Below are positions 527-634 of a DNA stretch of 64,000 nucleotides, piece after piece. Both the position numbers and the translations under genes were made by a program. The notes under the pieces were generated by a model, which was not told where the DNA came from, did not search any database, and saw only the letters and a list, made by a program, of their open reading frames with translations. Location of the stretch: NCBI RefSeq assembly GCF_054482595.1, contig NZ_CM137008.1; one strand, given 5' to 3'. Each line of letters opens with the position of its first letter. Position 1 is the first letter of the stretch.

Positions 527-634
527 TTGCCGGATGCGAGTCGGTAACGGTTTGTAGGCCTGATAAGACGCGACAGCGTCGCATCAGGCATTGATTGCCG
601 GATGCGGCGTATAACGCCTTATCCGGCCTACATT
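527..634. repeat. REP/BIME cluster (palindromic units GCCGGATGCG... / AGGCCTGATAAGACGCG...)
   Basis: Sequence shows inverted copies of the enterobacterial REP consensus between acs and yjcH. Confidence 0.8.

Follow-up and report, generated by a model that had tools for sequence, protein, structure and literature searches.

The window, a stretch of 64,000 nucleotides, is a piece of an Escherichia coli chromosome that begins with the 3' end of acs, ends with the start of pepE and is reversed with respect to strain K-12 (4.23–4.287 Mb). Strain XH990 shows 100% identity to the window over the first 20 kb and is collinear with all of it, except for a 1331-bp insert and a 5-bp duplication at 34228–35558. 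Gene coordinates were carried over from the annotations of XH990 and K-12, and every start and stop codon was verified in the window. The insert at 34228–35558 is an IS3-family (IS2-like) insertion sequence of 1331 bp, flanked by a 5-bp target duplication, which disrupts a yjbI/SopA-family gene; it is missing from the otherwise near-identical XH990, and identical copies were found in many E. coli chromosomes and plasmids. Matches to Rfam families comprise sraL/RyjA (7866–8006) and the lysC lysine riboswitch (53836–54032). A gene for a 340-aa DUF2713 protein (24664–25686, minus strand) contains at least three tandem AT-rich repeats of 30 nt (25521–25631); at its position, the K-12 annotation shows two shorter genes, yjbL and yjbM.

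Between the last base of the acs stop codon (519) and the start of yjcH (720) lies a spacer with a cluster of REP sequences at 527–634, equivalent to 4285299–4285406 in K-12. REPs are imperfect palindromes of 30–40 nt with the head GCC(G/T)GATGCG and the tail ATC(C/A)GGCCTAC, and are thought to be dispersed in E. coli by the Y1 transposase TnpA(REP). The cluster begins 9 nt past the acs stop codon with the head TTGCCGGATGCGA of a Y REP (527–539, plus strand; head decamer at 529–538), which gives a weak match to the profile HMM used to scan the window. At the corresponding site, other E. coli strains either possess a complete Y REP or share the deletion, which identifies the remnant as a Y REP with an internal deletion. 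A linker of 13 nt leads to an inverted Z2 REP, TGTAGGCCTGATAAGACGCGACAGCGTCGCATCAGGCA (553–590, minus strand; HMM score 34.8 bits), predicted to form an RNA hairpin of -21.9 kcal/mol; this first full hairpin begins 38 nt past the acs stop codon. The Z2 REP and a Y REP, TGCCGGATGCGGCGTATAACGCCTTATCCGGCCTAC (596–631, plus strand; 40.9 bits; hairpin of -22.1 kcal/mol), are arranged head-to-head, separated by the 5-nt linker TTGAT. The Rfam model RF02564 (naRNA4/REP) matches positions 557–628 on the minus strand with 76.9 bits, the gathering score being 59.5.

When folded as acs-sense RNA, region 510–650 reached -71.6 kcal/mol (z = -6.6), and none of 200 shuffled sequences folded as well. In the minimum free energy structure, GTAACCC (516–522, including the acs stop codon) pairs with GGGTTAC (643–649), closing a three-way junction. 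Since this pairing is lost in strain 2021CK-00607 (variant L015), it was rejected as a real structure, and the complementarity is probably due to chance. Promoter and terminator scans of the spacer revealed no promoter-like or terminator-like site, and a literature search for a direct study of the acs-yjcH REPs retrieved none.

REP and BIME clusters of the window

A profile HMM was made from clear REP copies and used to scan both strands with all filters off. It detected 16 full REPs in exactly eight clusters, plus two remnants, and no further REP in the window down to E = 1e-3. All 16 REPs align to one profile, with the CTAC foot intact in 12 of them. The head decamer GCCKGATGCG occurs 16 times, as compared to 0.54 expected from dinucleotide shuffles, a count that was reached in none of 100 shuffles; the tail motif was observed 11 times (0.07 expected). 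These numbers, and the presence of the same repeat family in control DNA of K-12, rule out a chance origin of the palindromes from GC-rich intergenic DNA. The systematic scan and the motif counts thus establish that the repeats are real and that the initial annotation, which had described at least eight clusters of REP/BIME elements, was right in both number and kind; the identification is further supported by matches to RF02564. All REPs are extragenic in the annotations of K-12 and XH990, the single exception being REP no. 6 (see below), and seven of the eight clusters occur at the same places in K-12. The RefSeq record of K-12, searched as an independent catalogue, yielded no REP repeat_region features.

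The clusters comprise four BIME-2, two BIME-1 and two solitary REPs. Alternating Y and Z2 REPs with a short S linker, as is typical of BIME-2, were found between acs and yjcH, between lamB and malM, between malE and malF, and after pgi, with four clusters scoring 67–81 bits against the naRNA4 model RF02564. A Y REP, a long L linker with a motif resembling the IHF consensus, and a Z1 REP in a single copy, which characterize BIME-1, occur between plsB and ubiA and between sorE and pepE.

For comparison of REP density, ten 50-kb chunks of K-12, one every 400 kb, were scanned with the identical HMM and threshold. They yielded 26 clusters and 49 REPs in 500 kb, corresponding to 3.3 clusters and 6.3 REPs per 64 kb. 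Extrapolation of this 500-kb sample gives about 455 REPs per genome, as expected of a dispersed family of hundreds of copies; published numbers range from 286 to 574. The EcoCyc catalogue lists 355 elements with 697 REPs (PMC12306157), equivalent to 4.9 clusters and 9.6 REPs per 64 kb. With eight clusters and 16 REPs, the window exceeds the genome average by a factor of 1.6–2.4, and the Poisson probability of eight or more clusters is 0.02 at the rate sampled in K-12 and 0.12 at the EcoCyc rate. A genome holds about 72 windows of 64 kb, so one or more with eight clusters are to be expected. The region is REP-rich and not exceptional, and the "high density" stated initially was an overstatement.

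A solitary Y REP (19048–19083, minus strand; 37.7 bits; -19.5 kcal/mol) lies 26 nt past the alr stop codon, upstream of tyrB. The second solitary REP (47150–47190, minus strand; 29.4 bits; -24.6 kcal/mol), with head and tail of the Y type and a long loop, is also found in K-12. It had been placed after psiE (46608–47018, minus strand), whereas it is actually located upstream of this gene, 131 bp before the start codon, between the divergently oriented psiE and yjbT. Scans for promoters and terminators upstream of psiE detected nothing relevant. In the XH990 annotation, a hypothetical ORF of 47 aa (47144–47287, minus strand) covers this REP (no. 6); as K-12 has no such gene, the ORF was probably annotated erroneously because of the repeat.

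The BIME-2 after pgi (51846–51940, minus strand) is composed of a Z2 REP (51846–51883), a Y REP (51888–51924) and a Z remnant (51930–51940). According to Term-seq data (PMC7815308), the pgi transcript of K-12 continues across it and ends at an intrinsic terminator some 90 nt downstream. An Rfam match to STnc430 (51634–51783) overlaps the pgi terminator region on the opposite strand.

Between the convergent genes plsB and ubiA, a BIME-1 (31977–32077, plus strand) consists of a Y REP (31977–32012), an L linker with the IHF-like motif ATTCAATAAATTG, and an inverted Z1 REP (32048–32077). A Term-seq 3' end of ubiA maps to position 32084 on the minus strand, at this gene's own terminator just before the BIME-1 (PMC7815308). 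The second BIME-1 (63224–63322, plus strand), at the right edge of the sor island, shares the RIP-RIB-like architecture, comprising a Y REP (63224–63259), an L linker with ATTCAATATATTG, and an inverted Z1 REP (63293–63322). Both are present in single copy and have linkers of about 35 nt with the motif AATTCAATAWATTG, which differs by one mismatch from WATCAANNNNTTR and is a putative IHF site. The motif of the sorE-pepE linker, AATTCAATATATTG, with one mismatch to the IHF consensus, is identical to that of plsB-ubiA and likewise a candidate site for IHF. The sorE copy differs in that its stems are degenerate, with HMM scores of 28.9 and 20.0 bits and hairpins of -10.7 and -7.2 kcal/mol, as compared to -18 to -25 kcal/mol for most of the others.

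The sor (L-sorbose PTS) island itself spans 57039–63354 (plus strand) and replaces 86 bp of the rluF-pepE spacer of K-12. In blastn comparisons, the alignment of K-12 with the window stops at 57038 and resumes at 63355; between these points, K-12 has 86 bp of its own DNA, and the window has 6316 bp with the sorbose PTS operon. The arrangement sorE-BIME-pepE was observed in 2681 of 5426 complete E. coli genomes; in the remaining genomes, the match begins only at 63355 or 63364, and the junction at 63354/63355 is thereby confirmed. The BIME-1 ends 31 bp inside the right edge of this 6.3-kb island. The comparison with the rluF-pepE spacer of K-12, as suggested in the initial annotation, showed that K-12 lacks the BIME-1; judging from these alignments, the element belongs to the sor island, and K-12 is devoid of both. 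The earlier coordinates of 63215–63330 thus did contain a cluster, a BIME-1 with the slightly narrower extent given above. Its description as a more divergent copy near the island edge holds true; nothing in these comparisons indicates that it caused the junction or marks it mechanistically.

Two clusters, those between acs and yjcH and between malE and malF, had been reported to lie within operons, and both are indeed located between co-transcribed genes; a third one had been missed. This BIME-2 (Y, Z2, Y; 37896–38021, minus strand), previously assigned to the region after malM, lies between lamB (38032–39372, minus strand) and malM (36870–37790, minus strand), and hence inside the malK-lamB-malM operon; the HMM scan of the window detected no REP cluster after malM. 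The operon-internal clusters therefore number three, not two. The malE-malF cluster (42124–42251, plus strand) is a BIME-2 consisting of Y, Z2 and a degenerate Y REP. It is the very element which Newbury, Higgins et al. reportedly described in 1987 as an mRNA stabilizer. A Term-seq 3' end of K-12 (4245094, minus strand; PMC7815308) corresponds to position 42249 of the window (plus strand), 2 nt past the last REP stem of this cluster.

According to Liang, Rudd and Deutscher (2015), as cited in PMC12306157, translation can be reduced by a REP that follows the stop codon within 15 nt. The first stems follow the stop codons of malE, plsB and lamB at distances of 11, 12 and 13 nt, respectively, and by analogy such a translation-stalling mechanism could apply to these three genes. 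The stems after alr, pgi and sorE, in contrast, are 26, 30 and 160 nt away. Downstream of acs, the 15-nt range contains only the remnant, which does not fold, and the distance of 38 nt to the first full stem renders the mechanism inapplicable.

Variation of the acs-yjcH spacer within and beyond E. coli

A 361-bp probe across the acs-yjcH spacer was searched in 5426 complete E. coli genomes, and five variants were read. Full-length collinear matches were obtained in 4570 genomes; the others are structurally different. The Z2-TTGAT-Y unit is present once in the window and in K-12, three times in variant L018 and four times in L017. The left remnant is longer in L015, and the Z2 REP of L016 is replaced by a Y-like inverted REP. 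Strain MS 21-1 (L019) has a single complete Y REP and, after it, an ERIC-like element (381–606 in L019), so called from the sequence CCCCAGGAGC...GTGACTGGGG, which we take to be the ERIC core. An ERIC-like core of the form CCCCAGGAGCATAG...CTATGTGACTGGGG occurs in the spacer of this one E. coli strain as well as in Salmonella, Citrobacter, Buttiauxella and others (L026, L034 and L036 among them).

A copy number that varies at a fixed locus is a published hallmark of BIME-2 (PMC3333891), and 1, 3 or 4 tandem units were observed here in different genomes. The cluster also resembles the BIME-2 of Gilson, Bachellier and Hofnung (Ton-Hoang 2012, PMC3333891) in its alternating Y and Z2 REPs, the short head-to-head linker TTGAT and its extragenic location. 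There is no essential difference; the copy in the window, within the strain-dependent range of 1–4 units at this locus, is a single unit accompanied by the internally deleted Y remnant. The variation in unit number and the ERIC-like replacement fit neutral selfish DNA as well as a tuning of expression.

A search based on YjcH provided 80 species of Enterobacterales for comparison of spacer sequences. In all 80, acs is located directly upstream of yjcH, with a spacer of 76–317 bp that contains a strong local hairpin (-14 to -32 kcal/mol). Folding of the whole spacers resulted in a median z of -3.8 relative to dinucleotide shuffles, with 65% of the 80 species below -3. The source of the hairpins differs between the taxa. 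E. coli-type REPs were confined to Escherichia, most Citrobacter, Salmonella and Kosakonia cowanii, the spacers of Citrobacter and Salmonella having a single one. ERIC-like cores were seen in Salmonella, Citrobacter, Buttiauxella and others, and the hairpins of Pectobacterium, Erwinia and Pantoea are unrelated.

In 52 of the 80 species, a hairpin of the type CCCTCTCCC-N3-6-GGGAGAGGG with an A-rich tract occupies a constant position upstream of the yjcH ribosome-binding site, ACCTCTGGAGAnTCTGTGATG, which is conserved as well. The corresponding element of the window (about 658–683, plus strand), likewise upstream of the ribosome-binding site, appears as a decayed ancestral hairpin, CTTCTCCC ATAA GGGAGCGG (as a whole, CTTCTCCCATAAGGGAGCGG), followed by the A-rich tract. 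The CCCTCTCCC/GGGAGAGGG element looks like a boxC-type repeat. Its exact motif is absent from 560 kb of K-12 DNA, so that its status as a repeat family within E. coli could not be demonstrated. Double changes were found in only two of the six pairs of the ancestral stem, most changes being C-to-U wobbles, and polypyrimidine/polypurine stems such as these cannot be aligned in a reliable register. The covariation was therefore not counted as support; what is claimed here is conservation of a sequence element, not of an RNA structure.

From these comparisons of sequences, the acs-yjcH spacer emerges as a hotspot in which families of palindromic repeats replace one another. Tentatively, and with the view itself being rather unlikely, the spacer may be selected to keep a stable stem-loop right after acs, supplied in turn by different selfish palindromic repeats: an ancient, boxC-like CCCTCTCCC/GGGAGAGGG element in the majority of Enterobacteriaceae, which has decayed in E. 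coli, REP/BIME-2 in Escherichia, the single E. coli-type REP of Citrobacter and Salmonella, and ERIC-like sequences of several genera. The E. coli polymorphism of one to four units would then adjust the ratio of acs to actP from strain to strain.

Possible roles of the acs-yjcH REPs

Co-transcription of acs, yjcH and actP is stated in PMC6036698 and PMC6498577, both citing Gimenez 2003. The cluster thus combines stable hairpins in the mRNA sense with neighbors that, according to the literature, are co-transcribed. In this it resembles the malE-malF element and REP325 of yjdMN, since it is a BIME-2 which separates co-transcribed genes and follows the one expected to be more highly expressed; it differs from the former in the distance of the first full hairpin from the stop codon (38 instead of 11 nt). 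REP325 has been described as both a partial Rho-dependent terminator or attenuator and a stabilizer of the upstream yjdM mRNA (bioRxiv 10.64898/2026.03.23.713779). In the same preprint, tandem gene pairs containing a REP show a median log ratio of upstream to downstream expression of 0.96, as compared to -0.09 in controls, albeit with a wide spread, and REP effects are reported to be context-dependent.

By analogy with malE-malF and REP325, the hairpins would block 3'-to-5' exonucleases when the operon is transcribed and would partly attenuate read-through, and the acs segment of the mRNA might then outlast and outnumber the yjcH-actP segment. A barrier to 3'-exonucleases combined with partial attenuation, favoring acs over yjcH-actP, is the most likely role of the cluster on the grounds of this analogy. 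At the DNA level, its Y REP is a likely gyrase site, as gyrase preferentially cleaves the Y REPs of BIME-2, a property known for a subset of these elements (PMC6379681). Term-seq data for MG1655, comprising curated 3' ends and Rho regions from three growth conditions (PMC7815308, supplementary file 1), include a 3' end internal to acs, but list neither a 3' end nor a Rho region in the acs-yjcH spacer (K-12 4285214–4285412). For this reason, the argument for a stabilizer or attenuator at acs-yjcH is one of analogy. The initial statement that REPs stabilize the upstream mRNA and set differential expression accordingly stands as a general rule, backed by the bias of the tandem pairs and the 3' end at malE-malF, whereas nothing in the curated Term-seq and Rho tables extends it directly to acs-yjcH.

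The same tables are consistent with the possibility that the REPs are neutral selfish DNA without any effect on expression, residing in a permissive, transcribed, non-coding spacer. The variation from one to four units among strains, the variant inverted REP of L016 and the ERIC-like replacement in L019 would be expected of such DNA; most other genera lack REPs in this spacer, and the context dependence and wide spread of REP effects point in the same direction. On the other hand, all 80 species keep a strong hairpin right after acs, whatever the repeat family, and expression of tandem pairs with a REP is biased, on average, in favor of the upstream gene. We regard complete neutrality as possible, though somewhat unlikely; when the stabilizer/attenuator role is set against neutral selfish DNA at this particular locus, the chances appear roughly even.

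Stable GC-rich hairpins downstream of a stop codon, together with the partial Rho-dependent termination at REP325, could also suggest that 527–634 is the transcription terminator of acs and that yjcH-actP is expressed from a promoter of its own. This is improbable, given that the hairpins lack a T-tract, that the spacer scans yielded neither a terminator-like nor a promoter-like site and no Rho region is called there, and that co-transcription of the three genes is reported in the literature. Still less credible, and hardly to be expected, is a small nucleoid-associated RNA of the naRNA4 type, acting with HU to condense the chromosome, even though RF02564 matches 557–628 above its gathering score. 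The model in effect describes a Z2-Y REP pair, so that any BIME-2 matches it, as do all four in the window; two of the four matching clusters, including that of acs-yjcH with its match on the minus strand, are antisense to the local transcript. A nucleoid function has been proposed for naRNA4 (CssrE) but is disputed, as the 2026 preprint found no measurable nucleoid compaction by REP325/naRNA4 (bioRxiv 10.64898/2026.03.23.713779).

Membership in the REP family, the extragenic location, two stable hairpins in the acs sense and a copy number varying between strains were observed directly for the cluster at 527–634. We are thus largely confident that it is a BIME-2-type cluster of a truncated Y, an inverted Z2 and a Y REP between the co-transcribed acs and yjcH, whose hairpins, by analogy, likely favor acs mRNA over yjcH-actP. 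REP/BIME elements have been known since the 1980s, those of malE-malF and lamB-malM among them. The cluster is therefore a long-known kind of element, at one of the loci already catalogued for K-12 in EcoCyc, and carries little weight as a discovery. What changes is the map of the region, in which three clusters are operon-internal, one REP lies in a 5' region, and the sorE BIME is part of an island. Mildly new is the observation that a hairpin follows acs in every species examined while the repeat family that supplies it turns over. The hotspot between acs and yjcH may be used to test whether palindromic repeats tune expression within an operon, and, if such tuning by successive repeat families is true, acs-yjcH would offer a natural series for studying the domestication of repeats.
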